DNA from: Yuukianura sp. NJ FZ-2021
Taxonomy: Eukaryota
Assembly (NCBI GenBank): GCA_046563655.1
Contig: CM102286.1
Coordinates: 15,190,001-15,254,000 of the forward strand
Reading direction: 5' to 3'
Length of the DNA: 64,000 nucleotides
The position numbers and the translations under genes were made by a program. The notes below the pieces were generated by a model that ran no database searches, was not told the DNA's origin, and worked only from the letters and a program-made list of their open reading frames with translations. Below are positions 1,079 through 63,172 of this stretch, in pieces (the first letter of the stretch is position 1; each line of letters opens with the position of its first letter).

Positions 1079-3817
1079 ATGGAGTCGTGGTTGACTGTGG
1101 GAAGAGACGATGGAGAATGTTGGTGTGCGTTGGGATTGGCGCAGTCGCTTGCTGCCTCCGGAACAACCAAAAATACAACCATCTTTACTGGTCAAAATGT
1201 GTCCAACGAAATGAGGTAAATCCGTGCCATATTTTAGTTAAGATTTAAAATTAAGTTAAATTTTTTACGTTCTTTGTGGTGTTAAGATTCCTGCTGGGTC
1301 ATTTCTTTGACCTTGTGCAGCCACTGCCAGCGGAATTCAAGCTGACCTCTGACCTGGCCACTTTCACCCCTTGGACCAAATGTGTCACGTTGGACGCCAA
1401 TTATATCGTAAACCATTTCAATTTAATTTATAAAAACGAAAATTCAAAACTTACCCGCAGTTTTTTGTTGATTAAAGGCACTGGAAAATGTAGATGAACT
1501 TTTTGAAACTTCCCGATCAAAAGATTCTCCGATCGACGCCTCACGTCAAGTTGAAGTGGTGATTTGGAGTCGAGGCGGTTCACGGACGCTTACAAAGTAA
1601 AAGCAGAAATTAAAATTTTCAATTTTTACTTTTTTTACGAAATAAAAGAAGCGTTACCTTTGTAATTCGCAGAGCAAAAACGAAGAAACTTGTTGAAATG
1701 GATTTGAATTTGCTGGGTTCTCTCTGGACTCCAGTGTTCAACGTTCTGTTTCAAATGGACACCGAAGTTCAAAAGTCACTTTTGAAGTCTTGTCCAATCC
1801 CAGCACCAAGTATTCCTCGGAGCTTTGAAAATACTGGCACAAAGGCGGATTTGTCCGAAGCAATTGCAATTGTAGGGATGAGTTGTCGTTTTCCTGGAGC
1901 AAACACGCTGGACGAATACTGGGACATTCTAAAAAACGGAAAACACACAGTGACTCGATTTCCTGTAGGAAGAGCCACTTTTGACATTCCAGGTTAAAAT
2001 CCAAACTCAAAAGTTGTTAACTAAACTCGTAAAAAACTCACGTAATTTGACGTTTGACATTGCAGGAATCGAGGAGTCAGTGGCTGGATTCCTGAGTTGC
2101 CCCATCGATGAGTTTGACCCTGCGTTCTTTGACATTGACCCAGCAGAGGCCTGGGTCATTGACCCCCAGCAACGTCTTTTGCTGGAAGTCGCTTGGGAGA
2201 GTGTGGAAGACGCAGGGATAGATGCAGCTACACTTCGTGGGACGAACGGAGGCGTGTTTGTTGGAAATTTGCTGCAGGACTACGAACGCATGATCCCACC
2301 CAACGACTTGGTGGGTCTGGATGGGACTACTCGGATGGTCGGAAACTGCTTGAGTGGTCTGAGTGGTCGGTTGTCCAGATTTCTAGGTCTTAAGGGTCCC
2401 AGTATTTCTCATGAAGCAGGCTGTTCCTCTGGACTCGGAGCGATGCACTTGGCGTCTGAATCTCTTTTAAGAAAAGAGTGTGATGTGGCTTTGTCTGGCG
2501 CTGTGAATCTCGTGATTCTGCCAAGAGCTTACAACACTGCAGTGCTGTCAGCTCATTTCAAGTGCAAGACATTTGACGAATCGGCTGATGGCTTTGTGTC
2601 TGGAGAGGCCGTGGGAGTTTTGGTTTTGAAGAGATACGCAGATGCAGTGAGGGATGGAGATCGCATTCGGGCAGTCGTCAGAGGAACGGCCATGAGCAAT
2701 GACGGGGCTTCCCTGTGCTACGGAACTCCAAATCCGGAAGGGCATGCAAGAACGCATAAACTGGCTTTGGCAAAAGCAGGAGTTCTGCCAAGAGATGTCG
2801 CCTATGTTGAGACACACGGAACTGGAACACAAAAAGGAGGCAATGTTTAAAAAAATTTCGAAAATTTGAAATTCAATTTCAAGAAAAAAAATGTTTAATT
2901 GTTTTTTGTTTTTGTTTTACTTAGACATCGGAGAGGTGTTTGGATTGGCGGAAGCTTACGGAGGAAACAGAAAGAGTCCGCTTCTGATTGGTTCCGTAAA
3001 GCCGAACATTGGTCACGGTGAAGCGGCTGCCGCTGTGGGTTCACTCGTTAAACTTGTTTTATCTCTGGAAAACGAAGCCATTCCACCAAACATCTTCTTA
3101 AACAAGGTCAATTCCAAGATTGACCTTGACTCCATTCCTGCGCAGATTCCAACACAGTTGACCCCTTGGACCGGAAATGGACGTCTGGCTGGCATCAGTT
3201 CATTTAGTCTCACTGGCTCCCTTGTCCACGCCATCCTCCAGTCAACTCCTCCAAAAAACTCCAGTTTCTTAAACAACCAATCAGACGATGAGAAACCACA
3301 GCTCATCTGCATTTCTGCCAAAACCGGAACTGCTTTGGAGCTTCAACTGGAAAACTACGTTGCCTTCTTGCGTCGAAATGGAAGTGTGAAGTTGGTGGAT
3401 GTTGCCATGGCTGCAAATGTTTGTAGAACCCATTTCTGCCATCGGATAGCAGTTTTGACCAGCAGTGTGGCTGAATTGATAGAGAAGCTGGAGAGTGGGG
3501 ACTACTTGGCAGGAATTGGGACAGAAGTGGGAGAAACTGTGGACGTAGTGGCTGAAAGTGGACAGTGGTCGAAAGTGGAAGTCTATTTGGAAAACGTAGG
3601 GAAATCGTATGTGAAAGGCGGGATTTTGAATTGGTCTGCATGGTTCGGACGGCGGGAAAAGAAAGTTTTCCTGCCTTTTTATCCATTTGAACGCCAGAAA
3701 TACTGGTTCCATCCCTCAGATTTCCCTCTGGTCATGCGCAAACGAATTGCAGAAAGTGAGTCACTTGAGCCACCAAATCTCCCACCTCCAGCCAATGTCC
3801 ACAATTTCAACAGTTGA
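1079..3817 (+). CDS. Fusion protein: degenerate glycogenin/GT8-like N-terminal domain + type I PKS ketosynthase + KS-AT linker and post-AT linker, no AT/ACP (787 aa, 6 exons)
   Basis: Exons 1079-1215, 1287-1407, 1478-1596, 1673-1992, 2066-2839, 2925-3817 join in frame (2364 nt). KS motifs AIAIVGMSCRFPGA, DPQQRLLLEVAWE, AGCSSG (Cys), ETHGTGT (His), KPNIGHGEAAA (His); post-AT motif LPFYPFERQKYW. N-terminus WLTVG..ALGLAQSL..VSNEMR..FD.V..KCVTLDANYIALENVDELF matches the glycogenin pattern. Confidence 0.85.
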
Positions 3818-4025
3818 AACTAAGCTCAGAATTCCTTTGCTAAGCTCCTAAACTTTGCTTTAAAATTGCCAAGTTTTTAAGTAAAGCGATTTTCACAATT
3901 CAATTTTTCAGAAAACTGTTCCTCTTAATACAAAAAAGTTAGACTCCACCCTGTTCCCCTGTTTTATTTTATTCTTTTTCAATGATTTAAAAAAATAGGT
4001 AAAAATTCTAAGTGTAAAAATAGTG

Positions 4026-15271: not shown

Positions 15272-18200
15272 TTAGATGAATTCAAATGTGAGTCCATGCT
15301 TCTGGAGTCGCTGTACGATGGATGTTTTGGCAAAGGCAGTTCCAGGAGTGAACACGCCACCACTTGCAAAAATTATCAACAAATCAAAACCAAAAGTTTA
15401 TCAAATTGAACCAAATTAAAGTTGATTTACCGCGTGGGAAAAGAAGATTTCTCAGCCAAAAGTGTGAGTGCAGCTTGGACAAAACAAGTCCGCGTGGCTC
15501 CATACGCTGGATTCCTTCCACTAATCTGTGTCAAAATTCAAAAAAATTAAAAGTTTTTTTTTTAAAAACGTTTTATTAAGATAATTTGTGTGCCTTTAGA
15601 ACACGTCGTGTGTTGGGTGGTGTGTCGTAGTCTTCATTTTTAGATTTGTCCAGTGGTTCATCCCAACCTTGTCCAATGAGCGTCATAGAAAACTCAAACT
15701 TCTCCATCAAAGACCGCGACGGACCTCAGGAAAAGACAACACTTTTAAAATATTTGAAGTTTCGAGAGGTCATTGCTGAATGCTGATCTCCAATAACTTT
15801 GTGTACATCATTTCACTAACCTTTCTTGGAAATTATCCCAGCAGAAAACAGGCGAGGAAACTAGAAAAATAGTTGATAAATATGAATATATATATTATAT
15901 GAATATAAATTATAATATGAAAATCCAAAATCAATTTGAGTAAAGTAAGTTACGTGATCTAGAAGGTAGACGCCGCCTGGAACACATTTCATGACGAATC
16001 CAATGAAGAGAGACCCAAGCAGAACCAGCAGTGTGATCAAAATGTTGGACTGCTTCAAATACGAAGCAAATTGGACTGGTCGCTTCTTTTCCTTCTCGTA
16101 AAAGTAATTTTGAGACCGCTCAACAGCCTAAAAAATAGGAAAAGAACATCGGTTGTTCAAAATTTAAAACAAAAAATCAGTTCCGAATTACAAGCTTTTG
16201 CGTCAGATACAAAAAAAATGAAGGAGTTATTTTTCCTCTGTATTCTCTACTATCTCTCGCAATGCATTTTGTCCTATCTCGCAATTTGTCCTATCTCTCG
16301 CAATGCATTTTGTCCTATCTCTCGCAATGCATTTTGTCCTATCTCTCGCAATGCATTTTGTCCTATCTCTCGCAATGCATTTTGTCCTATCTCTCGCAAT
16401 GCATTTTGTCCTATCTCTCGCAATGCATTTTGTCCTATCTCTCGCAATGCATTTTGTCCTATCTCTCGCAATGCATTTTGTCCTATCTCTCGCAATGCAT
16501 TTTGTCCTATCTCTCGCAATGCATTTTGTCCTATCTCTCGCAATGCATTTTGTCCTATCTCTCGCAATGCATTTTGTCCTATCTCTCGCAATGCATTTTG
16601 TCCTATCTCTCGCAATGCATTTTGTCCTATCTCTCGCAATGCATTTTGTCCTATCTCTCGCAATGCATTTTGTCCTATCTCTCGCAATGTTATAAATCTG
16701 TTGAAGTTTTATGGCTTACCCAAATGTCCGGATGTGGAAATGGAAGACACCAACCAACTTCACCAACTTCATCCTTGAAAATCATGTACTTCCTGAAATA
16801 TTTAGTTTCAAAAATATTTTCAACAAATTCCTCAACTAAAATTTGAAAACACTAACAAATCGTTACCGTTGAAGTTCGTATTTTGGTTTCGGAAGTTGGT
16901 TTGGGTAGAGTTGTTTGAGGAGTGGTCTTAAAGTATGAAACTGAGCGTAAAAGTGGAGCAGAGACGTCCAAGTGCCGTAGTTGAAGCCAGTCGTCACCAA
17001 ATGCGAACCAGAGTAAACAAAGTTTTCCACCCAATTCAATTCACCTTCAGTTTTGTTCAAAACCAAAATTAAAAAAAATAAAGATTTTTGCTATTTCCTG
17101 GATTTAGCTTACCTTGGAATTGTTTTTCCAAGTAATTGATTCCACATTCGTTCAGTATACCTGTCCATAGTCAAAAATGTTTAAAAATCAAAAAATTTAC
17201 GACTTAAAAATTATAAATTTTAAAAGTTGATCATTTGTTACTGTCGTATCCGCAGCTTCCGACGATGTACACTCCAGCCTCTCTTGCCGCTTGGTCGTAG
17301 CGAACTTGGAGCTCAGTCAAACTAAAAACACAATTGAACATTTACTAAAAAGTAACAATATTTTGAATGCTATTTTGGATAACCTGTGTGACTCTGCACT
17401 GAGGTCAACCTGGTGCGTCTTCGTTCGAATGCAGGCCTTGATGATTCGTTCGCCTGTAAAAAAAAAATGACCTTTGACCCCAACATTTCAAACAAACAAG
17501 TGATTTGCATTATTGCATACCGTATTTGGCATAAGGGCCCACAGCATTGAGCAGCACTTTGCAGTCTCTTGTCATGTAGTCCAGCGAAGACATGCGACTA
17601 ATGTCTGCTTCAATCGTCTCGATGTGCCCCAAATCAGTTCCTAACAAAAACAAAAAAAGTTGTACAAAATTTCAAAATTTTAAAATTTGGATTTTTTTAT
17701 GTGCTGTATTATATGAGGGGAGATCGACTGCTTTTCAATACGATTTGCTGCAAGATTTTTTTAAAAAACACAAGCAAAAATTCCTTGCAGAAAATAGGGA
17801 CGAACATTTTCTGCAAGCTTTTTTCTTGCACAGAACGGAGGCGTTGTTATAAAAAGATTGCGGAAAATTGAGACGTTGTTATAAGAAACATGCGGAAAAT
17901 TTGAGGAATTGGAATTTTAAAAAATTCAGCTTAAATTCAACTTTTGGATATATTTGCCTTGCCGACGATTTACGTTACGTAAATCGTAATTGACGATTAC
18001 GATTTACTCTACCGTCTTGAAATGTTGGTCTCGTGAAAAATTGACCTGTTCTCTAACTTTTTGACGTGACCAAATTTTTAAAAATTCACTTGTACACTTA
18101 CTTTTTGAGGATTTGGAATTTTGAAAAATTCAGCTGAAATTCAACTTTTGGATATATTTGGCTTGCCGAGGATTCACGCGTAACTCTACCGTCTTGAAAT

Positions 18201-48179: not shown

Positions 48180-49177
48180 AATAACAAACACCAAAAAATT
48201 GGAAAAAATCCTTCGGCGACAATTAAAGAAAAAAATAAGAGGTGAGAACCCAAAACTAAGCTCACAACGATGTGGCACCGATGAGGCTCTTAACTCAACA
48301 AAGTATAATTCTTATAGAAATTGTAAACGTACAAATAAAGCAAACTTAAGCATCTAAAACAACCCATAACGGTAATATAACTTCTTCGTTCGCTTAGAGC
48401 GATGAACAGGAACCAAAGTAGTTAATGCTGACTAATCTCATCGCTTCGAATGGGGGCTTGGGCTCCTGGAAGTACATGGCTAACAGAGCTCATTGATTCT
48501 TCAAACGCTTTAACTTTGACATGCTCCGCACAGACAAATGAGCCATCGTTGTGGATACCAGCCATGACGGGAAGAGGCACAACCAAATCTTAGAAAATGG
48601 ATTGAGAAATAACAATCCTATTATGAAATTTCGATAGAAAGCAAGAATAACTGTTAATAACCCTCCAAGCGAATCTTCATCATTTCGTCATCAAATTCGT
48701 CATTACTCATTAGATTCCTTAGTAGAGAATTACGCGACAGTAATATCAGCGCTGGTGCCGAAGTCAATAGCCTACGTTATCTCATCTCTTTAGCCAAAGG
48801 CCCTTTTAAGGGCCACCTTAACACACAAATAGCAGAAAAGTACTTCGATGCATGGTTGATTGTTAAATTATTGAGTGGGCAATATCTTGGAAGGGGAGGA
48901 CAACATGTCCTGGAGTGTAGACAATATTGTGAACTGAGGACTACATATCCAGGAGTGTGGACAATATCCTTGGGAAGGGGGCGGGGGCAACATGTCGGGA
49001 AGAAGGGGTTTTCAGGGTGAATGAACTTTTAAAAGTAGACTTCACTCACCCCGAATCAGAGTTAATAGAGCCGAATCAGGGCCAAATCGTTGTGAGCTTA
49101 GTTTTGGGTTCTCACCTCTTATTTTTTTCTTTAATTGTCGCCGAAGGATTTTTTCCAATTTTTTGGTGTTTGTTATT
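48180..49177. mobile_element. ~1-kb foldback element with ~92-bp perfect (to ~120-bp imperfect) terminal inverted repeats
   Basis: 48180-48271 AATAACAAACACCAAAAAATTGG...CTCACAACGAT is the reverse complement of 49086-49177; no intact transposase inside; no clear TSD. Confidence 0.75.
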
Positions 49178-49734: not shown

Positions 49735-52700
49735 AAATTTTTGAAAATTCATAACTTGAGAACGGAACGTGATAGAAAGGTAAATTTGACGGTTCTGAAC
49801 TCGGAAAAGGATGTAGAATTTTATAAAAAATTAAAACCCCTACCCAAAATTTTGAAAAAAAAGTTAAAAAAAAATTTTTTTTTGAAAACTTTGAAAATTC
49901 ATAACTCTGGAACGGAGAGTGCTACAGGGCTCATCTTTCACGTCAGAATATTCACACATATGAAGAATTTTTAGAAATTATAAAAAGGCCGAAAACGAAC
50001 AAAAAAATTTTCGGCCAAAAAAAATCCTAAGGCGCCTTCAATTTTTTCGAAATTTGGTCAAAATTTTGGGTGGTGTTTTTAATTTTTTATAAAATTCTTC
50101 ATAATTTTGCGAGTTCAGAACCGTCGAGTTTACCTCTCTATCACTTTTCATTCCGGAGTTATGGATTTTTGAAATTTTTCAAAATTTTAAAAAAAATTCA
50201 AAATTTTTGAAAATTCATAACTTGAGAACCGAACGTGATAGAAAGGTAAATTTGACGGTTCTGAACTCGGAAAAGGATGTAGAATTTTATAAAAAATTAA
50301 AACCCCTACCCAAAATTTTGAAAAAAAAAGTTAAAAAAAAATTTTTTTTTTGAAAACTTTGAAAATTCATAACTCTGGAACGGAGAGTGCTACAGGGCTC
50401 ATCTTTCACGTCAGAATATTCACACATATGAAGAATTTTTAGAAATTATAAAAAGGCCGAAAACGAACAAAAAAATTTTCGGCCAAAAAAAATCCTAAGG
50501 CTATAGCCTTCAATTTTTTCGAAATTTGGTCAAAATTTTGGGTGGTGTTTTTAATTTTTTATAAAATTCTTCATAATTTTGCGAGTTCAGAACCGTCGAG
50601 TTTACCTCTCTATCACTTTTCATTCCGGAGTTATGGATTTTTGAAATTTTTCAAAATTTTAAAAAAAATTCAAAATTTTTGAAAATTCATAACTTGAGAA
50701 CCGAACGTGATAGAAAGGTAAATTTGACGGTTCTGAACTCGGAAAAGGATGTAGAATTTTATAAAAAATTAAAAATCCTACCCAAAATTTTGAAAAAAAA
50801 AAAAGTTCAAAAATTATTTTTTTGAAATCTTTGAAAATTCATAACTCTGGAACGTAGAGTGCTACAGGGCTCATCTTTCACGTCAGAATATTCACACATA
50901 TGAAGAATTTTTAGAAATTATAAAAAGGCCGAAAACGAACAAAAAAATTTTCGGCCAAAAAAAATCCTAAGGCTATAGCCTTCAATTTTTTCGAAATTTG
51001 GTCAAAATTTTGGGTGGTGTTTTTAATTTTTTATAAAATTCTTCATAATTTTGCGAGTTCAGAACCGTCGAGTTTACCTCTCTATCACTTTTCATTCCGG
51101 AGTTATGGATTTTTGAAATTTTTCAAAATTTTAAAAAAAATTCAAAATTTTTGAAAATTCATAACTTGAGAACGGAACGTGATAGAAAGGTAAATTTGAC
51201 GGTTCTGAACTCGGAAAAGGATGTAGAATTTTATAAAAAATTAAAACCCCTACCCAAAATTTTGAAAAAAAAAGTTAAAAAAAATTTTTTTTTTTGAAAA
51301 CTTTGAAAATTCATAACTCTGGAACGGAGAGTGCTACAGGGCTCATCTTTCACGTCAGAACATTCACACATATGAAGAATTTTTAGAAATTATAAAAGGG
51401 CCGAAAACGAACAAAAAAATTTTCGGCCAAAAAAAATCCTAAGGCTATAGCCTTCAATTTTTTCGAAATTTGGTCAAAATTTTGGGTGGTGTTTTTAATT
51501 TTTTATAAAATTCTTCATAATTTTGCGAGTTCAGAACCGTCGAGTTTACCTCTCTATCACTTTTCATTCCGGAGTTATGAATTTTTGAAATTTTTCAAAA
51601 TTTTAAAAAAAATTCAAAATTTTTGAAAATTCATAACTTGAGAACGGAACGTGATAGAAAGGTAAATTTGACGGTTCTGAACTCGGAAAAGGATGTAGAA
51701 TTTTATAAAAAATTAAAAACCCTACCCAAAATTTTGAAAAAAAAAAGTTCAAAAAAATTTTTTTAAAAAAACTTTGAAAATTCATAACTCTGGAGCGGAG
51801 AGTGCTACAGGGCTCATCTTTCACGTCAGAACATTCACACATATGAAGAATTTTTAGAAATTATAAAAAGGCCGAAAACGAACAAAAAAATTTTCGGCCA
51901 AAAAAAAATCCCAAAGCTATAGCCTTCAATTTTTTCCAAATTTGGTCAAACTTCTGAGGGTCTTTTTAATTTTTTGTAAAATTCTTCATAATTTTGCAAG
52001 TTCAAAACAGTTGAGTTTACCTCTCTATCACTTTTCATTCCCAAGTTATGAATTTTTAAAAATTTTGAAAATTTAAAAAAAATTCAAAATTTTTGAAAAT
52101 TCATAACTTGAGAACAAAAAGTGATAGAAAGGTAAATTTGACGGTTCTGAACTCGGAAAAGGATGTAGAATTTTATAAAAAATTAAAACCCCTACCCAAA
52201 ATTTTGAAAAAAAAAGTTAAAAAAAATTTTTTTTTTGAAAACTTTGAAAATTCATAACTCTGGAACGGAGAGTGCTACAGGGCTCATCTTTCACGTCAGA
52301 ACATTCACACATATGAAGAATTTTTAGAAATTATAAAAAGGCCGAAAACGAACAAAAAAATTTTCGGCAAAAAAAAATCCTGAGGCTATAGCCTTCAATT
52401 TTTTCGAAATTTGGTCAAAATTTTGGGTGGTGTTTTTAATTTTTTATAAAATTCTTCATAATTTTGCGAGTTCAGAACCGTCGAGTTTACCTCTCTATCA
52501 CTTTTCATTCCGGAGTTATGGATTTTTGAAATTTTTCAAAATTTTAAAAAAAATTCAAAATTTTTGAAAATTCATAACTTGAGAACCGAACGTGATAGAA
52601 AGGTAAATTTGACGGTTCTGAACTCGGAAAAGGATGTAGAATTTTATAAAAAATTAAAACCCCTACCCAAAATTTTGAAAAAAAAGTTCAAAAAATTTTT

Positions 52701-53068
52701 TTTTAAAAAACTTTGAAAATTCATAACTCTGGAACGGAGAGTGCTACAGGGCTCATCTTTCACGTCAGAATATTCACACATATGAAGAATTTTTAGAAAT
52801 TATAAAAAGGCCGAAAACGAACAAAAAAATTTTCGGCCAAAAAAAATCCTAAATCAATTTTTTCGAAATTTGGTCAAAATTTTGGGTGGTGTTTTTAATT
52901 TTTTATAAAATTCTTCATAATTTTGCGAGTTCAGAACCGTCGAGTTTACCTCTCTATCACTTTTCATTCCGGAGTTATGGATTTTTGAAATTTTTCAAAA
53001 TTTTGAAAAAAATTCAAAATTTTTGAAAATTCATAACTTGAGAACCGAACGTGATAGAAAGGTAAATT
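49735..53068. repeat. ~470-bp AT-rich satellite, ~7 copies, each monomer with an internal ~115-bp inverted repeat
   Basis: Marker ATAACTTGAGAAC at 49751, 50217, 50689, 51161, 51633, 52103, 52574, 53033; GTGATAGAAAGGTAAATTTGACGGTTCTGAACTCG vs CGAGTTCAGAACCGTCGAGTTTACCTCTCTATCAC within each unit. Confidence 0.95.
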
Positions 53069-53370
53069 AATGAAGAAAAACTTGATGTTCGCTTTCGAAC
53101 TTTAAAACTTGTAGAAAGGTGACGACGTTTGGATGAATTAAAGCAATTTGGTGAACAGTATTCTAGTTTAATTTTTATTTAAACCAAGAAATTGACAAAA
53201 ATAATGGACGTGGAATGGAAACGAGGACTTCATAAAATAATTTACGGCTTGTGTCTGACATTGAACTGTTCTAAACTAACAAGAGATTCGTTTTGTTCTA
53301 AACGAGAAACAAGAAGTAGCTGATTTATCCCTTAACTATTGAATTCTTAGTGTTAGACCGTATAGGAGGA

Positions 53371-54288
53371 TCACTTGGTGCGTCTCTCTGCAATGTAGTT
53401 GAGTAAGCGGTTCCCTGCTACAAAAGTGACAATTCCTGGAGGTCCCATCCACTTCAAAGCCTCGAACATTGTCAATTTGATCCAAAACAAAGCGTAGACA
53501 CCAAACAAAGCTAAAAAAACAAAGAGGCTTGTTATGAATTAATAGTCGTCAACTTAAACTTAAAAGGATTAAGCACTCTGATCAGTAAATTCAAAGTGAC
53601 ATCAGGTGTCAGAAGAACGAAAGTATAAATTGCATCATTTGAACTGTTTGGTAAATTATATTTAGAAGTGGTGCTTAGTACCTGTAAGCCCGAGGTGAAA
53701 GCTCAAAGCACTCAATGTGAAGGGGAAGTTGCTAATATTCACTCCTATTTTTATCCACTGCAAGTAAAAGTCAATTGTCAATCAGTTTCAACATGACATT
53801 TAAGGAGTAGAATTGCGTTGAGAAGTTTACCAGAAAGAAGAGAACGACGAAGGGCAGCAGGACGAGAAGAGTGAAGGCATCTGAAACGACTTTGGGTGGA
53901 CGTGGTTCAGGTTGACGAAACTGGTACTGAGTAAATCACAAAACAAAGTTGGCATTATTAACTTTAGAGTTACCAAGTAAACTGCGACTGTCAACCCGTT
54001 AAGGTACATCATCGTAGCCACTGGCGACCAACGACATCGACAGACGGGTAATTTCTTTCCCAATGGTATGGAAGTTGAACAGCAACGGTTACTGAACACT
54101 AACGATCATTGGAACACTTTAATTACACTTATTCTAACGCTCAAATTCCATCAACTTACTTGGATTTCTGGTTTTGGTTCGTATGAAATGGAGTAGAGTG
54201 GATTGGGTCTCGGCGAATCGTTGTCTTCTTGGGCCATACTGGATGATGACCATAGTAATATAAATATAACAACTGCAAACTTTGTCAT
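53371..54288 (-). CDS. Truncated ribophorin II-like protein (signal peptide + C-terminal membrane domain only, 146 aa)
   Basis: Exons 54288-54160, 53926-53831, 53757-53682, 53510-53371 (441 nt) with GCCACCATG start. Protein: MTKFAVVIFILLWSSSSMA-QEDND...YEPKPEIQYQFRQPEPRPPKVVSDAFTLLVLLP...WIKIGVNISNF...FHLGL...FWIKLTMFEALK...VTFVAGNRLL, matching the RPN2/Swp1 C-terminus. Confidence 0.85.
53577..53644 (-). ncRNA. Intronic box C/D snoRNA, SNORD59/snR54-like (18S rRNA guide)
   Basis: On - strand: C box ATGATGC, guide ACTTTCGTTCTT + D' CTGA, C' TGATGT, D box CTGA; the 12-nt guide is complementary to the conserved 18S sequence AAGAACGAAAGU. Confidence 0.75.
53986..54114 (-). ncRNA. Intronic box H/ACA snoRNA
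   Basis: Hairpin 1 closed by TTCCAATG/CATTGGGA, hinge AAAGAA (ANANNA), hairpin 2 closed by ACCCGT/ACGGGT with an internal pocket, then ACA + 3 nt; ~130 nt in an enlarged intron. Confidence 0.68.
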
Positions 54289-54756: not shown

Positions 54757-56596
54757 TCAAAGTTTGTGGTGTGATGATGAAAGTAAGTCTGGCAAAATAC
54801 CATCATCTAGCGTACAATGCAAGGATGTTCCTGGGCCGAGTTCAACCGTCGGTACAGGATTATGATGTCCTATTTCACCACTCCCTTGAACCAATTCCAC
54901 AGTTGGGGTCATGTACGCAGGAGACAAAATGGGATTCGGATGAAGTCCCACTCCCGTCAGCTTCGAATCCAGACTCCATTTCCCTTCTGGAACCTCGACC
55001 TCGCGACTTGAGGTCTTGAGCCATTTCATTTTGCATCCGATCAGCGAACAGTGATTGTACAACATCCCAACTGAAAAGAAACAAATCACAACTCGCATGC
55101 ATTCCAAACAAATAGTAGATGGTGGGCCAGAGCTTACTTGTTGCATAAACCCCTCCGATGATTGCACAAAGACGAACAAAGAATTCCATGAAAGATTCAC
55201 TCTCTTCGGTCACTTCAACCTAATAAAAAAAATCAGATTCTTCCTGCGTTCTTGGCGAGATGACAGAAGATTATAAATCTAGATCTCACCTTCAGTCCAC
55301 TCATTTCGTACTTGAAGAAAATTCCCTGGAAAACCAGAAAACATTGAGAAATTGAACTTACGTTACGATTTCTGTTAAGGAGTTTGGTATAACTTACTGA
55401 AATTCCATGTGAGCCCTGGTCATGGTTAATTTCTCTGGAAAATTCTCTGACTGAATACTGGTAGGTCAAGTAGGACTTAAAGCGCGTCTTTACAAGTGTT
55501 GGAACCACTTGAATAAAGTAGTGGTAAACCATCTGATCTATTCAATTCAAACAAGTCAACTTATTTAGAAAAACTAAAGTCAGTCGCTGTACTTACTGAC
55601 TGGTGCAATCTTTTCCTCTCCTTCAAGCGGGAGTACAATCCCTGGCGTTCCTTCACCAAAAGAAAACTTGGAGATTCTGTGGGAGAAGTTGTAGTCTCGT
55701 TCCGTCATGAAGGCAGCGATATGGGCATGGCCACGAGGAAGCGGCAGTGTCTTCCCAGCCGTGATGTGAAAATTTCCAGCCACTTTGTTCAGTTCCAGTC
55801 TTCCATACAGACGACATGATTGTTTGACTCGGTGATAGTCCAACTCCTCCCTCGTCCTAGACAAAATGGAAAAAGATTATACATACTGCCAAATATTGTT
55901 CAATTGAACTATTTATGTTGTTTTACATAGGAGGCATTTCGGCATGTGAATTGAGAAATGCGTTCTTCCATAAGATCTGATGGAGCGAGTGATATTCCTC
56001 TCTCAAATAGGAATTGAAGCTGGCTTTGGCTTGGAAATACGCCCTCTGAGCTTCCCCAAGTGCAAAGTGAACATACTCTTCTTCCAGTTCCCCAAATTTC
56101 ACCAGATTTTGGTTCGTCGAGTCCACTATGTCAGCCCCAATATCTAAAATCAAAACAACACAATATGAAACACAGTAACAAAAAGTACGCAAATATCACA
56201 GTAATCTAAATCTAAGTGTGAAAATAGTAAATCTTACTGCTGCAGGGCATGGCGACGGACATGTCGACGTTGATGCTCAGTTTGGAATCCATGTCAACAT
56301 CAGGGCTGAAGTGGAAGGTAAAATCTGAGTCCAGATAGTAGCCCACTTCCAGAATGCTGAGCCAAAGGATGAGGATGATTGCAACTACCGAGGCTACAAG
56401 AAACCATAATAGAGTAACGATTAACAAAAGGAGATGAAATACGTAAATGTGGGATGGCGAAGGACGTACCAGTGCCTCCATAAGATGTCTTCTCCTCGTA
56501 TGTTTCTGGGACTTTGGGGAAAACATCCAAGTTTTCCACAGCTTGCAACACCTTGATCTTCCTTCTCCTGATTTGAGCCGCTCCTTGCTCAGCCAT
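54757..56596 (-). CDS. ERGIC2: ER-Golgi intermediate compartment protein 2 (Erv41 homolog)
   Basis: LDVFPKVPETYEEKTSYGG, INVDMSVAMPC, IGADIVDSTNQ, CRLYGRLELNKVAGNFHITAGK, YNFSHRI, YHYFIQVVPT, GIFFKYEMS, VRLCAIIGGVYAT. Confidence 0.93.
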
Positions 56597-57628: not shown

Positions 57629-59980
57629 ATGGATGTGAGAGCTGTTCTCGTCCTGATCTTCCTGTCTGCGGCTGCTTTTGGGAAATCCGTGACCCCTAAG
57701 CAGCAAGTGACCCCGTCGATTCAAGTAGAGCCTCTGAGCAGCATCGGACGGATCAAAAATCCCAAAAACTTCAACTATGGCCACCAACAGCCGAAACAAG
57801 GCCCTCTGCCGGACCCCGTCCTCATCTCATCCTCCATCAGAATCAACAAGGACACGCCCTACCAACCTCCCCGCAAATACGCTCCTAAGGAATTGAATAA
57901 GCGACAAATCTTCATCCAGGATCAGACGCAGTTGACCCCCAGTCAACCGCCGCATCAGGGTGAGCAAACCATTTTCTATTCTCCCAATCAGCACAACTAC
58001 GCTACACCGGAAGTTCCTCTCTACGCCACTCCAGCTCCACTCCAATTCCAAACAGTAACAGCACTTCCTCTCAACACAAATCAAGGTCAAATGTTCCTGT
58101 TGCAACAAACGCCGCAGGCATACTCACCTTTGACCCAACCAATCTCAAAGTTTGTGGCAAGAACAGGAGAAACAGAACCACAATCATCACTACAACCCAA
58201 AGTTAGCATCGTGAGTCACGCAGATCCAAATGCCCAACAGGATTCTGCCAAGAGAGACCATGGTCAAAAAGAGCATCCAAAGTCTCAACAGGAAATCCAG
58301 TACGAAGAAGCTCAGCAAGTTCTACAGAATATCATCAAGCAACAGGCTCTGCAGCAAACGCAGCAACAGAGACAGCACCAATTTCAATTGGCACAGCAAA
58401 TCCAAGAACAGTTTACGATTCAGGCTCAGCAACAGGCAGCGCAGGCGCAACTTGAAGCTCAACAGGCAGACCAAAACCAACAAATTCTCCTCTCAACATT
58501 ACCCCAAGTCCCAATTCAAACAAACCAACCACAAATGTTTCAACTGCAAACTTCTGCACAGCAACAAGTTTACCAAGCACCCAATGGGCAAACCTACATT
58601 CTGCACAAGCAGGAACCAAAAGAAGAGCAGCCAGAGGTCACAGGTCAACCTACACAAATCCAACCCCAATACACGCTACAAAAGCCACTTACCCCAACAC
58701 ATCCAGAACACAAAGGTCAAACCAAATTCATCATCAGACACCAGACTTACGTGACTGGCCCTGGAGGTCAAATGTTTACAGTTCCAGTCCCAGTTCCAGC
58801 AGAAGAAAATCCCAACTCCAGAGAAGGATCTGGAGAAGAGGGGGCAGAGGAGAGGAAAGACGAAGGGAGCAGAGAGGAGGAAAGAAGGGACGAAGGGCCC
58901 CCTCATCGTCCTCCCCCTCGCCCCCTCAATTCCTTCATGCGAAGAGTCATGGAGGCCTTCAGTGTGCGCGGAGATGCAAGTGAAAGAGTGGGAACGAACA
59001 TTGCTTTGCCAATTCTGGCTTCGACTGGCGTGTTCTTTGGTCTGGGGGCCCTTGCTGCTGGTTGGTACTTGTCAAATGCAAACAGAGAAGTTGGGATTCT
59101 GCGTCGAACAGGGAAGCCAGTTCCACAAGGGACGCATAACGTCAAAAGAATCAGGCGCCACCTCCCCACGCCACCACCAGAAGTGGACCAAGCCAGTTTC
59201 TTCCAAAGCATAATTCAACAAGCGATTGAAAAGCAGCAAGAGCAGTTTGAAGATCCCGCTGTTTCCCCTGCAGCGGAAACAGAATATGGTCCAGCCCCAG
59301 GAAGATTTCCACCTCAGAATCATCGCTTTCCGCCTCAAAATCGACAAGACTTGCATGAAGGAGGTCATGGCGACAGTTCAGCCAACTCCAAAGTGGGTCA
59401 TCGTCCAATCCAGAAGAAGTCTGCATGGTTCGTGTCGAGTCAAACTCTTAACTTTTTTAAAGTTGCTATTCCAGCGGTGGTTCTTGGTGGAGCCGTTGTG
59501 GCCATTGGGGTTCTAATCTTTGGGTGGTACATTACGGGCAGCAACCGAGAAATTGCTTTCCTTGAACCTTCCGCCTACTCCAGACGGAAACGAGACATCA
59601 CGACGACAGCGTTGAGTGATGGGTGGCTCCAACGCCTCCTCAACTCCATCCACCAGAGTCCCTATGATGAGGACCCACCAGCCTTTGACCCCTTGACCTC
59701 TCTGTCCACAAGTAAAGGGAACATCGAGTATCATGCAAATGTGTCTGACGCAGTCGTGGCTGTGTCTTTGGCCGTCATTGCTTTTCTCTCGCTTCTCGGA
59801 ATAGTCTTTGCTTGGCTAGCAGCACAAAATGAAAAGTCCAATTTGGGTGTGGAGGGGGCTTATGGCTTCGGAGGGTGGCCTGGGAGCAGATCCAAGCGAT
59901 CCTTACTTGATTCCCTCCAGTTGACCTTTGACCTTGCACAGCAAAATATAGGCCAGTTGAGTGGCTCGGACAGAAACTGA
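57629..59980 (+). CDS. Intronless 783-aa Gln/Pro-rich secretory-pathway protein with three hydrophobic segments each followed by an RXXR site
   Basis: Long ORF with signal peptide MDVRAVLVLIFLSAAAFG; hydrophobic helices ending GWYLSNANRE, GWYITGSNRE, AWLAAQNEK; downstream RIRR, RRKR, RSKR. Confidence 0.8.
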   Translation: MDVRAVLVLIFLSAAAFGKSVTPKQQVTPSIQVEPLSSIGRIKNPKNFNYGHQQPKQGPLPDPVLISSSIRINKDTPYQPPRKYAPKELNKRQIFIQDQTQLTPSQPPHQGEQTIFYSPNQHNYATPEVPLYATPAPLQFQTVTALPLNTNQGQMFLLQQTPQAYSPLTQPISKFVARTGETEPQSSLQPKVSIVSHADPNAQQDSAKRDHGQKEHPKSQQEIQYEEAQQVLQNIIKQQALQQTQQQRQHQFQLAQQIQEQFTIQAQQQAAQAQLEAQQADQNQQILLSTLPQVPIQTNQPQMFQLQTSAQQQVYQAPNGQTYILHKQEPKEEQPEVTGQPTQIQPQYTLQKPLTPTHPEHKGQTKFIIRHQTYVTGPGGQMFTVPVPVPAEENPNSREGSGEEGAEERKDEGSREEERRDEGPPHRPPPRPLNSFMRRVMEAFSVRGDASERVGTNIALPILASTGVFFGLGALAAGWYLSNANREVGILRRTGKPVPQGTHNVKRIRRHLPTPPPEVDQASFFQSIIQQAIEKQQEQFEDPAVSPAAETEYGPAPGRFPPQNHRFPPQNRQDLHEGGHGDSSANSKVGHRPIQKKSAWFVSSQTLNFFKVAIPAVVLGGAVVAIGVLIFGWYITGSNREIAFLEPSAYSRRKRDITTTALSDGWLQRLLNSIHQSPYDEDPPAFDPLTSLSTSKGNIEYHANVSDAVVAVSLAVIAFLSLLGIVFAWLAAQNEKSNLGVEGAYGFGGWPGSRSKRSLLDSLQLTFDLAQQNIGQLSGSDRN

Positions 59981-60777: not shown

Positions 60778-63172
60778 TTATGTGGATGTTGCTGGTAAAG
60801 AGTAGAAATCCTTTCTGCGCAGAATTAGAACACTCGGCTCAGTTATAATTCTGATTGGAGGATGACGACGCCAGTGAAAGTCTATGTGGTGGAATGCTTC
60901 TACTGTTCCAGCAACTTCATGACTCTGGAAGTAAGCATATCGCTCCTCTAACTTATTTGCATGCACAAATATGTGTGTGAACGCAAGCATTTCCTTCCCA
61001 CCCACTGACAGATCTTCAGTCTTGTTGTACCTTCAAAAACAAAGTAAAAACGTTAGCTTATTTCGAAAAAAAATTTAAGTATGAAGTGGAGACACTCTTC
61101 AATTTTCTTTAGTAAAGCATCGAAAGTGAGTCCCCAATACTTTTATGGTTAAACAGAACTCTATGTACACTCTGCACAGTTCAATTTAACCATAAAATCA
61201 TTGGAAGTCACCTGCCAATACTCTTATGGTTAAATTGAACTGTGAGGACACTCTGCACACTTCCGTTTAACCATAAAATCATTGCTAGGTGCCTTCCAAT
61301 GCTCTTATGGTTAAATTGAACTGTGTAGGCACTCTGCACAGTTCAATTTAACCATAACATCATTAGAAGTGACCTACCAATGCTGCTATGGTTAACCTCA
61401 AATGTGTGGATATTCTGTACAGTACACTTTAACCATAAAAGAATCAAAGATCCCAATGCTGTTTATGGTTTCTTTAATGTAAAAAGAGGAATCTGTGTAT
61501 TTCTTACGTCCAGTGCGAGTAGAGTTGTAGGAATCTGGAGACTCCTGTTTGGGCAGAATGTACATCAATGTGAACGTTGACTGGAGCGACGGCTGACTCA
61601 ATTTGATGCAACTTGCGGAGAGCTGTTCCTCCTGGATAATTGTGACTAGACACAACCAGGAAGCCAGTCGTCAGTACAGCATTGAGTACCAGGTGGAACA
61701 AAAGAGCCACTGACATGAGTGTAGAAAGGAGCCCTTTGACTCTGTTTCTCCAGATTTGGTCTGCTCCCACTGCAGCAGCAACATTCACAACTGGAATGAC
61801 GTAGATGATGAAACGAAGCTCCTTGTGCGGAAGAAACGAGTAGAAAAAGACAAAGAGAAGACATGGAATGACGAGTATTCGTACACGACGACTGAGCCAG
61901 AGTCCGATTGGAATTAGAAAGAGAGAGGAGAGGAGACTGCGTGGAATGGCGGAGTAAAAGTACCACAAGAATGGAGATGTCTGCACCAAACAAAAAAACT
62001 CGTCACAAACTTAACAATTTTCTCGGATTGTGGAAAAATAAAGTAAGAAGTTGTTTACCCCCCAGTTGTGACTTTGGTTCCGAATGGTGTTGAACCAGAG
62101 AACTTCTCCCTCTGGCCACAGCCATCTTCTCCAGAAGATGGAGTCAATTAGAAACGTTAGAGCCAGTGACCCAAGCCCACTCGGAATTGAATACTTGATT
62201 GCCCTACCAAAGAATTATTGTAAATAAAGTACTAAGAATGGTTCGTAGTAATGCGATGATGATGATAGAATATTTAAATCTTACGATAGAAGTGATATTC
62301 TTCTACGAAGTAATTCGTAGATTAGAAGGAGGCCAAAGAGGGAGACTAGTTCGGCCCTGAAGACCAAGGAATCAAAAGCTGCTGCCAGAATGAATAGTGC
62401 ATGATGTCCTTCCATCCAAAAGTGCAAAGCTAGTAGAGCTAAAAGAAGAAATAGAAATTCAAATTCAAATTCCTTTCATAAGACGTTTAGAGAGAAGTGG
62501 ATGACCTGGTGGAAGTGCAAAGATGTTGGGAAGTGTTCGTCCCATGTAGAAGACAAAGTGAAACTGAGATGCAGTGATCATGACTAGCCACCAGCCCACT
62601 CTGGAACCAAATTGCTTCGACACACTTCTGCGGAATTGTTGGAAGGCTCGAATGACGCATTCTGCCAAGCAGATTCGGACTAAAATGCAAATGAAACAAT
62701 GGAACTTATAACTGAAGTAAATGTTTGATTTTATTGATGAAGTGGTGTTTTACCAATGATTTGTGCTGGAAACTTGGTGAAGAAGAGTTGTGAAAGGATG
62801 ACGAAGGGATATGAGACAGCGGAGAGAAGCAATGGTCCAATAAACGTTCTTGGAACGACTCCCCCAAACTCCAGATGATCATACTGCGAAAAAGACAAAG
62901 GGTTAAAACGTTGAACTTGAAAGTTAGTTTATATAAAAAATGAAGTGTAGTGGACTTACTGAATCCAAGTTAGTTTGATGGTAGATGAGATCGTGCGTAG
63001 CCTGGAGATTGAAGCTCTCTTCTACCTTGGTGAGTGGACAAGTGAAGATGTGGATGAGGGCAACTACTCGCAGAAGCACTTCCGGTTGCAACGCAAACAC
63101 TGGAACCTTTGCTACTTCCAGTCTTTTCTCTTCTCTTCCTTGCCATTTGCCTGAACCTCCGCGTTGTTTCAT
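60778..63172 (-). CDS. ALG12: Dol-P-Man alpha-1,6-mannosyltransferase
   Basis: [94 protein letters not shown]; start codon uncertain. Confidence 0.93.
61133..61470. repeat. ~81-bp tandem repeat (~4 copies), each unit palindromic, in the last ALG12 intron
   Basis: CCAAT.CT.TTATGGTTAAA...TTTAACCATAA..ATCATTG recurs at ~61134, 61215, 61296, 61377. Confidence 0.85.

Follow-up and report, generated by a model that had tools for sequence, protein, structure and literature searches.

A window of 64,000 nucleotides from Yuukianura sp. NJ FZ-2021 (assembly GCA_046563655.1, contig CM102286.1, positions 15,190,001 to 15,254,000; "the window" below is this whole 64-kb stretch, and all coordinates refer to it) carries on its minus strand a compact relative of RPN2, the gene for ribophorin II, a subunit of oligosaccharyltransferase (OST) that corresponds to Swp1 of yeast. 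The gene runs from 54288 to 53371 in four exons, and all of its introns are canonical GT-AG. The intact 146-amino-acid, four-exon open reading frame (ORF) of the original prediction was confirmed by the exon boundaries and by the spliced translation, as the 441-nt coding sequence yields 146 amino acids with one terminal stop only, and an in-frame TGA lies 7 codons 5′ of the ATG. The transcript model predicted from the sequence comprises the following features.

54288 to 54160, minus strand: exon 1, 43 codons, with the ATG in a GCCACC context and a GTAAGT donor; it contains signal-peptide-like residues 1 to 19 and the start of a luminal stub, which terminates in a conserved NPLY...KPEI motif.
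54159 to 53927, minus strand: intron 1, 233 nt, phase 0.
53926 to 53831, minus strand: exon 2, 32 codons, with a CAG acceptor and a GTAAAC donor; it contains the juxtamembrane motif (FRQPEPRPP) and most of the first transmembrane helix (TM1).
53757 to 53682, minus strand: exon 3, 25 codons plus 1 nt, with a CAG acceptor and a GT donor in phase 1; it contains the end of TM1, a loop on the cytosolic side, and the beginning of TM2, with helix limits placed by homology to a structural model of the mite protein P0039.
53681 to 53511, minus strand: intron 3, 171 nt, phase 1.
53510 to 53371, minus strand: exon 4, coding to 53374 and followed by TGA at 53373 to 53371; it contains the remainder of TM2, then TM3 and a short, basic tail in the cytosol.
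53167 to 53179, minus strand: two putative poly(A) signals (matches to the motif A[AT]TAAA only) in an overlapping range, about 195 nt past the stop.

The N terminus of the encoded protein has a Lys at position 3 and a 10-residue hydrophobic core whose best 9-residue Kyte-Doolittle mean is 3.6, compared with 2.4 to 3.7 in full-length relatives. A heuristic reading by composition and the −3/−1 rule places likely signal-peptide cleavage after residue 19, with Ser/Ala at −3/−1. Approximately 35 residues separate the predicted signal peptide from the first helix; the stub length first proposed therefore stands, and the accompanying signal peptide fits these heuristics only.

To assign the gene to a family, exons were scanned one at a time against Pfam. 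Exons 2 through 4 together contain the complete RPN2 C-terminal membrane domain (PF25147, Ribophorin_II_C), as had been claimed from inspection: exon 2 matched profile positions 1 to 30 (E = 2.5e-8), exon 3 matched positions 31 to 54 (E = 5.8e-4), and exon 4 matched positions 57 to 99 of 99 (E = 7.3e-12). Exon 4 also aligned with residues 586 to 629 of human RPN2 (PDB 6s7o_F, E = 4.6e-6). Exon 1 matched no Pfam family, and the luminal families PF05817, PF23861, and PF23860 were undetected in the 64-kb window. The 146-amino-acid protein is thus the predicted product of a real RPN2-family gene without luminal domains.

The structure of this gene can be compared with that of close relatives. Scanning metagenomes with an alignment of its clade recovered 12 loci. 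Transcript-like contigs of the same clade encode longer proteins, with at least 504 amino acids in one whose 5′ end is cut (L004), at least 399 in a second (L002), and 311 and 341 in L001 and L003, which are both complete medium forms. In the genomic loci L005 and L007 to L011, introns fall exactly at the three positions of the window gene, i.e., after KPEI-K/Q (phase 0), before W-x-K-x-G, and after HLGL-x-G (phase 1), with L008, like L012, ending too early to show all three. The exon of these relatives that terminates in KPEIK has about 65 codons and encodes the last luminal strands; when aligned to L005 and L007 to L012, exon 1 of the window gene retains the last 15 to 27 codons of that luminal exon behind its signal peptide. 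The relatives have no intron where the signal peptide joins the conserved stub. Because intron positions and intronic small nucleolar RNA (snoRNA) candidates are common to the window gene and to relatives with luminal domains, the gene is by all indications of its structure a DNA-level descendant of a standard multi-exon RPN2 gene and not a retrocopy. A remnant of a luminal exon 5′ of the ATG was also sought by aligning the last luminal exon of five relatives with the in-frame upstream 150 nt, and was rejected when the alignment ended at the Ser before the predicted cleavage site. A "VILFGLG"-like upstream string, seen by eye, was dropped since local alignment did not support it.

Protein searches revealed that this architecture is not confined to the window. 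A word-indexed search with exon 4 yielded 2 proteins among 3 candidates, both from JGI, 71 to 76% identical, and equipped with luminal Pfam domains; one is a fragment of at least 366 amino acids (P0001) and the other a complete 307-amino-acid protein (P0002). The nearest relatives of the window protein, the environmental P0002/P0169, share 73% identity over 122 columns. A search among short proteins with the C-terminal 130 residues of P0002 produced P0006 (144 amino acids), in which a signal peptide leads directly to a Y-x-PKPEI motif and the membrane domain, and P0006 as the query led in turn to P0008 (141 amino acids), P0009 (140 amino acids, on a 120-kb contig), and P0011/P0167 (158 amino acids). 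With P0006 as the query, an exhaustive search reached 722 proteins (E ≤ 0.001), and the best 150 were analyzed. Among these best 150 of 722, further minimal forms were P0107/P0168 (159/165 amino acids) and P0039 (150 amino acids), the latter being NCBI entry KAI1299206.1, annotated as OST subunit 2 of the acariform mite Halotydeus and located on a 627-kb contig.

In total, minimal proteins consisting of a signal peptide plus the membrane module (140 to 165 amino acids) occur in seven 90%-identity clusters besides the window gene, the architecture being represented by P0006, P0008, P0009, P0011/P0167, P0039, and P0107/P0168. Signal-peptide-bearing proteins among the best 150 of 722 fall into three length classes of about 600 to 720, 270 to 360, and 140 to 165 amino acids, and every minimal form retains the membrane module and the juxtamembrane motif. 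One 171-amino-acid protein (P0044) was first taken as minimal and then dropped as a probable fragment, being near-identical to the 543-amino-acid P0049. Eight other short sequences (P0028, P0029, P0069, P0086, P0087, P0098, P0161, and P0165) lacked a convincing signal peptide or resembled intron read-through and were not counted.

A tree of 151 rows and 125 columns, obtained by a quick search over few columns and poorly resolved, grouped the window protein with P0002/P0169, P0033, and the fragments P0001 and P0003 to P0005 in an eight-member clade (support, 99%). This clade includes the long form of at least 504 amino acids (L004) and complete forms of 307, 311, and 341 amino acids, in each of which a low-complexity linker and a single luminal domain follow the signal peptide. 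The mite-associated minimal forms sit elsewhere in the tree, near named anchors that include a 627-amino-acid protein from the tick Hyalomma, the 645-amino-acid RWS24210.1 (presumably of trombidid-mite origin), and a 302-amino-acid protein from the spider mite Panonychus. The nine minimal rows correspond to five state changes when the 116 rows assigned to the minimal, medium, or full-length class are considered. Forcing these nine rows, a group defined by architecture after a first tree had been seen, into one clade cost 138.8 log-likelihood units (approximately unbiased test, P = 0.028). Repeated, independent loss of the luminal domains is therefore favored over a single origin by this result, though not overwhelmingly. 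In a separate observation made by eye only, the signal peptides of the window protein and P0002 are both followed by Glu-Asp; signal peptides are compositionally biased.

As a stand-in for the window protein, the mite minimal form P0039 was modeled with AlphaFold from 47 aligned sequences. The model had a mean predicted local distance difference test (pLDDT) score of 82.3, with an N-terminal helix at residues 3 to 24 and long helices at 56 to 80, 91 to 112, and 116 to 149. In a Foldseek search with this model, the top 8 PDB matches were human and yeast OST chains (E = 4e-8 to 9e-3), with query-normalized TM-scores of just 0.35 to 0.41. The human chains are RPN2, as identified through the exon 4 alignment to 6s7o_F, and the yeast chains we take, from their length, to be Swp1. 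By alignment to P0039, we infer a three-helix fold for the window protein.

Residue conservation and substitution patterns indicate whether such a protein is maintained. Conserved columns were defined as those with one residue in at least 80% of the 150 other family rows (n = 30), and the window copy retains 25 of the 30, compared with a median of 28 and a minimum of 21 in the other rows. Three of its 5 departures are common to its clade, and 1 is unique. Compared with four clade relatives, the window copy showed a proportion of nonsynonymous differences (pN) of 0.186 to 0.253 and a proportion of synonymous differences (pS) of 0.669 to 0.941, the latter saturated; among themselves, the four relatives had a pN of 0.148 to 0.269. 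The check on relatives suggested at the outset, a ratio of nonsynonymous to synonymous change, thus came out with pN far below pS and matching that of normal copies. Tajima relative-rate counts for the window copy versus L001 with four outgroups were 10/10, 13/10, 11/5, and 7/5, none of them significant, and the window terminal branch was 0.2 compared with a median of 0.3. These comparisons indicate that the membrane module is under normal purifying selection and is not a decaying relic.

We consider it reasonably probable that this locus is a genuine, selectively maintained ribophorin II/Swp1 gene (OST subunit delta) from which all luminal domains have been deleted and in which the membrane scaffold is retained. 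A deletion within a normal multi-exon RPN2 gene would have removed all luminal coding sequence. A cleavable signal peptide would then insert the product into the endoplasmic reticulum (ER), so that the protein would consist of about 35 luminal residues, the conserved juxtamembrane motif included, three membrane-spanning helices, and a short tail in the cytosol. The product would pack with the helices of DAD1/Ost2 around the single helix of OST48/Wbp1 and hold subcomplex III against STT3, while the recruitment of the lipid-linked oligosaccharide (LLO) or the docking of accessory factors, as proposed for the luminal domains, would either disappear or pass to other subunits. Signal-peptide cleavage, assembly into OST, and status as the sole copy are steps that we infer.

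Several observations weigh against this reading. The number of conserved columns kept puts the window copy in the lowest 11% of the family. Its unique change is a Tyr for the His of the PEI-x-H-x-F juxtamembrane motif (residue 45, at a site listed as the 54154 to 54159 region), a His found in 99% of the 150 relatives and kept in all other minimal forms. The structural model and the fold search concern the mite protein P0039 and not the spliced product of the window gene itself, and the signal peptide was judged by composition and the −3/−1 rule alone. The search for other copies was confined to the 64-kb window, and a second, longer RPN2 may exist elsewhere in the genome.

This last point bears on the strongest alternative, in which the gene is an extra, truncated paralogue, a partial DNA-level duplicate of RPN2 that stands beside a longer RPN2 elsewhere and either competes for the OST site in a variant or regulated complex or acts in particular tissues. 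A duplicate made at the DNA level would equally inherit the intron positions and snoRNAs, one sequence clade contains long, medium, and minimal forms alike, and the unique His-to-Tyr change could signal altered function. However, the window copy shows no acceleration relative to a relative with luminal domains, its pN equals that of normal copies, and no second RPN2-like sequence was found in the 64-kb window by tblastn or by a hidden Markov model (HMM). In addition, minimal forms appear at several places in the tree, a pattern that repeated reduction of a single gene fits at least as well as repeated duplication. The paralogue therefore seems unlikely to us, while keeping a real share of the probability, and the window gene is more probably the orthologous RPN2 of this organism than a second copy. 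The original prediction had offered a reduced OST subunit or a paralogue at the RPN2 site and is partly supported; the support extends to an RPN2-family gene without luminal domains, its purifying selection, its DNA-level descent, and the recurrence of the architecture, and the first option is the more probable of the two. A more specific form of the orthologue reading can be put forward tentatively, as one that we would back at somewhat less than even chances: the 146-amino-acid protein would be the sole RPN2, the luminal domains would be dispensable for OST, and the loss would have proceeded stepwise from about 630 to about 300 to about 145 amino acids, several times independently, in small invertebrates including acariform mites, leaving the motif and three helices as the minimal functional RPN2.

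The introns of the gene contain two snoRNA candidates; all Rfam scores for these two, in the window and in its relatives, were below the gathering thresholds.

About 54118 to 53986, minus strand: H/ACA-type snoRNA candidate in intron 1, folding as hairpin, hinge, and hairpin, with ACA 3 nt from the end.
53644 to 53577, minus strand: C/D-box candidate of the SNORD59/U59 type in intron 3 (23.4 bits, E = 0.071; gathering score, 45).

The core block of the H/ACA candidate is kept in the equivalent intron of 6 of 7 aligned sequences, L012 being the one that deviates. The window copy had no Rfam match at E ≤ 1, and the copy in L010 (positions 442 to 580) matched SNORA54 (32.1 bits, E = 0.0063; gathering score, 60). 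For the C/D candidate, the SNORD59/U59 family or clan was matched in the equivalent intron of L005 (positions 910 to 979; 31.9 bits, E = 0.0033) and L010 (positions 971 to 1049; 25.3 bits, E = 0.65), and in all 6 aligned last introns neither the C box nor the 11-nt guide ACTTTCGTTCT varies. The RPN2 gene of this clade thus appears to be a multi-snoRNA host, with two candidates common to the window and its relatives.

These candidates make it conceivable that the gene is a snoRNA host relic, kept only for its intronic H/ACA and C/D snoRNAs, with a 146-amino-acid frame that is no working OST subunit, and the loss of a near-invariant His would agree with this. However, the frame is open over four exons with pN far below pS, 25 of 30 family-conserved residues are retained on a branch of normal length, and 73% identity to functional relatives is not expected of a relic frame. 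Named in the original prediction as an outcome that would count against it, the mere host relic is very improbable given this protein-level constraint, while the gene nevertheless hosts snoRNA candidates.

Introns in the luminal region of the relatives contain more H/ACA candidates, some SNORA20-like (28 to 41 bits) and others snoR639/SNORA70-like (31 to 39 bits), at the following positions.

L009, 183 to 322: luminal-intron H/ACA candidate.
L011, 794 to 865: luminal-intron H/ACA candidate.
L012, 982 to 1112: luminal-intron H/ACA candidate.
L007, 160 to 297: luminal-intron H/ACA candidate.

Since the window gene has no luminal-region introns, these H/ACA snoRNAs would be encoded elsewhere in its genome or lost. 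L011 also carries a tRNA at positions 3895 to 3966 (68.7 bits, anticodon UUC by reading of the alignment), about 800 nt downstream of its RPN2 gene; no tRNA was found in the 64-kb window.

Luminal coding sequence was sought across the window in several ways. When P0001 and P0002 were compared with the 64-kb window by tblastn, the C-terminal exons were matched and nothing luminal was. The luminal parts of 16 relatives, covering long, medium, mite, and tick forms, gave scattered matches in the window with a best E of 0.29, and no match better than E = 2.6 was obtained when an HMM of the luminal region in the clade was run against 2,683 six-frame ORF pieces of the window. The same-strand neighbor upstream is an ERGIC2-like gene, with COPIIcoated_ERV exons at 55236 to 55541 and 54878 to 55219 and a stop at 54875 to 54877 in frame with the last matching exon. 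About 470 bp had been given as the distance from the end of ERGIC2, a figure that is correct in order of magnitude. The space between the two genes is further marked by the following feature.

54521 to 54516, minus strand: AATAAA 3′ of the ERGIC2-like gene (motif match only), 228 nt before the ATG of the RPN2-like gene.

This motif leaves about 228 nt as room for the promoter and 5′ untranslated region of the RPN2-like gene. The claim that no room exists for missing exons is borne out, in that the window contains no luminal coding sequence and the upstream space is taken by other genes. An intron that ran for 10 kb across three other genes is not credible, because RPN2 introns in the relatives are about 60 to 320 nt long and a form of more than 500 amino acids occupies about 3 kb in L011. 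The weakest of the alternatives, that luminal exons lie beyond the window (which holds only 9.7 kb upstream of the ATG) or were lost by assembly collapse and that the true product is a longer RPN2, can be set aside as least probable of all, as that 9.7 kb is occupied by three other genes, relatives' introns and gene lengths are as small as just given, an in-frame stop precedes the ATG by 7 codons, a signal-peptide-like N terminus would be senseless inside a protein, and relatives have no intron at the junction of signal peptide and stub.

Farther upstream, an exon of an Alg9-like mannosyltransferase was identified at 61507 to 62010 (Pfam, E = 1.1e-18); of the ALG12 gene originally placed nearby, the mannosyltransferase family is confirmed, and the Pfam family alone does not specify ALG12. 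Upstream of the ERGIC2-like gene and on the strand opposite to the RPN2-like gene, positions 57629 to 59980 (plus strand) hold a single-exon ORF of 783 codons. Its predicted product begins like a signal peptide and has a region rich in Gln and Pro along with several hydrophobic stretches; it matched no Pfam family and had no exact copy in the protein collection. On the other side, a tandem array begins about 300 nt past the stop of the RPN2-like gene and occupies 49735 to 53068, with 7.1 copies of a 472-bp unit at 95% matches. A histone 3′ stem-loop at 48794 to 48841 (plus strand) scored 35.4 bits, compared with an Rfam gathering score of 34, and may be spurious; no histone-sized ORF starting with ATG adjoins it. 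Two long exons at 1969 to 3817 (plus strand) resemble the ketosynthase of a type I polyketide or fatty-acid synthase, as judged by eye from the translation only, and a short-period tandem repeat at 16140 to 16850 is open in all six frames over about 500 to 700 nt.

The recurrence of minimal forms suggests that the large luminal part of RPN2 can be dispensed with, and the natural series of shortened proteins amounts to an evolutionary deletion map of the subunit. Should the minimal forms prove to be the sole RPN2 copies of their genomes, they would reveal the indispensable part of RPN2 and offer a small construct suited to complementation tests and structural studies. In the presence of a longer copy, the minimal form would be a candidate for modulating the composition of OST. 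Orthology searches filtered by length will miss or misjudge the RPN2/Swp1 subunit. The size difference between Swp1 and RPN2 is recognized, and the reviewer comments in PMC4973528 include a referee's remark on the problem that a length filter poses for Swp1 orthology. RPN2/Swp1 is an essential OST subunit for whose luminal part the relevant section of PMC7226087 names only a role in "possibly LLO recruitment." In a literature search at the level of abstracts, in which a minimal or mini form was not queried as such, no description surfaced of an RPN2 form without any luminal domain. Searches aimed at reduced RPN2 surfaced no description of the Halotydeus protein.

Among known systems, human RPN2 (PDB 6s7o/6s7t chain F, 631 amino acids) has the three-helix membrane domain and the juxtamembrane motif in common with the window protein, which lacks the approximately 480 luminal residues of the human protein (the Pfam Ribophorin_II N-terminal, second, and third domains). 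Yeast Swp1 has about 286 amino acids, and the P0039 model matched the yeast OST entries 6ezn, 6c26, 7oci, and 8agb at E values of 2e-3 to 9e-3. The structural sections of PMC7226087 describe Swp1, Wbp1, and Ost2 as subcomplex III, in which the one Wbp1 helix is enclosed by three helices of Swp1 and four of Ost2, and lipids bridge Swp1 TM2-3 to Stt3. As described there, Swp1 is, like the window protein, a shortened family member with the three helices of subcomplex III; unlike the window protein, it retains one luminal domain. The RPN2/Swp1 luminal domains have no settled role in that account, in which LLO recruitment or a docking platform is proposed.

The closest counterpart in architecture is Halotydeus P0039, a product of automatic annotation, in which roughly 15 residues lie between the signal peptide and the Y-x-PKPEI motif, with three helices after it. 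It differs from the window protein in its tree region, where it groups with tick and mite sequences, and in keeping the conserved His. The medium forms, i.e., Panonychus XP_053213850.1 (302 amino acids, P0024), P0002/P0169 (307/311 amino acids), and P0033 (341 amino acids), differ in that a low-complexity linker is followed by a single luminal domain (PF23860). In the genomic copy L005, both the intron positions and the snoRNA candidates of the window gene recur.
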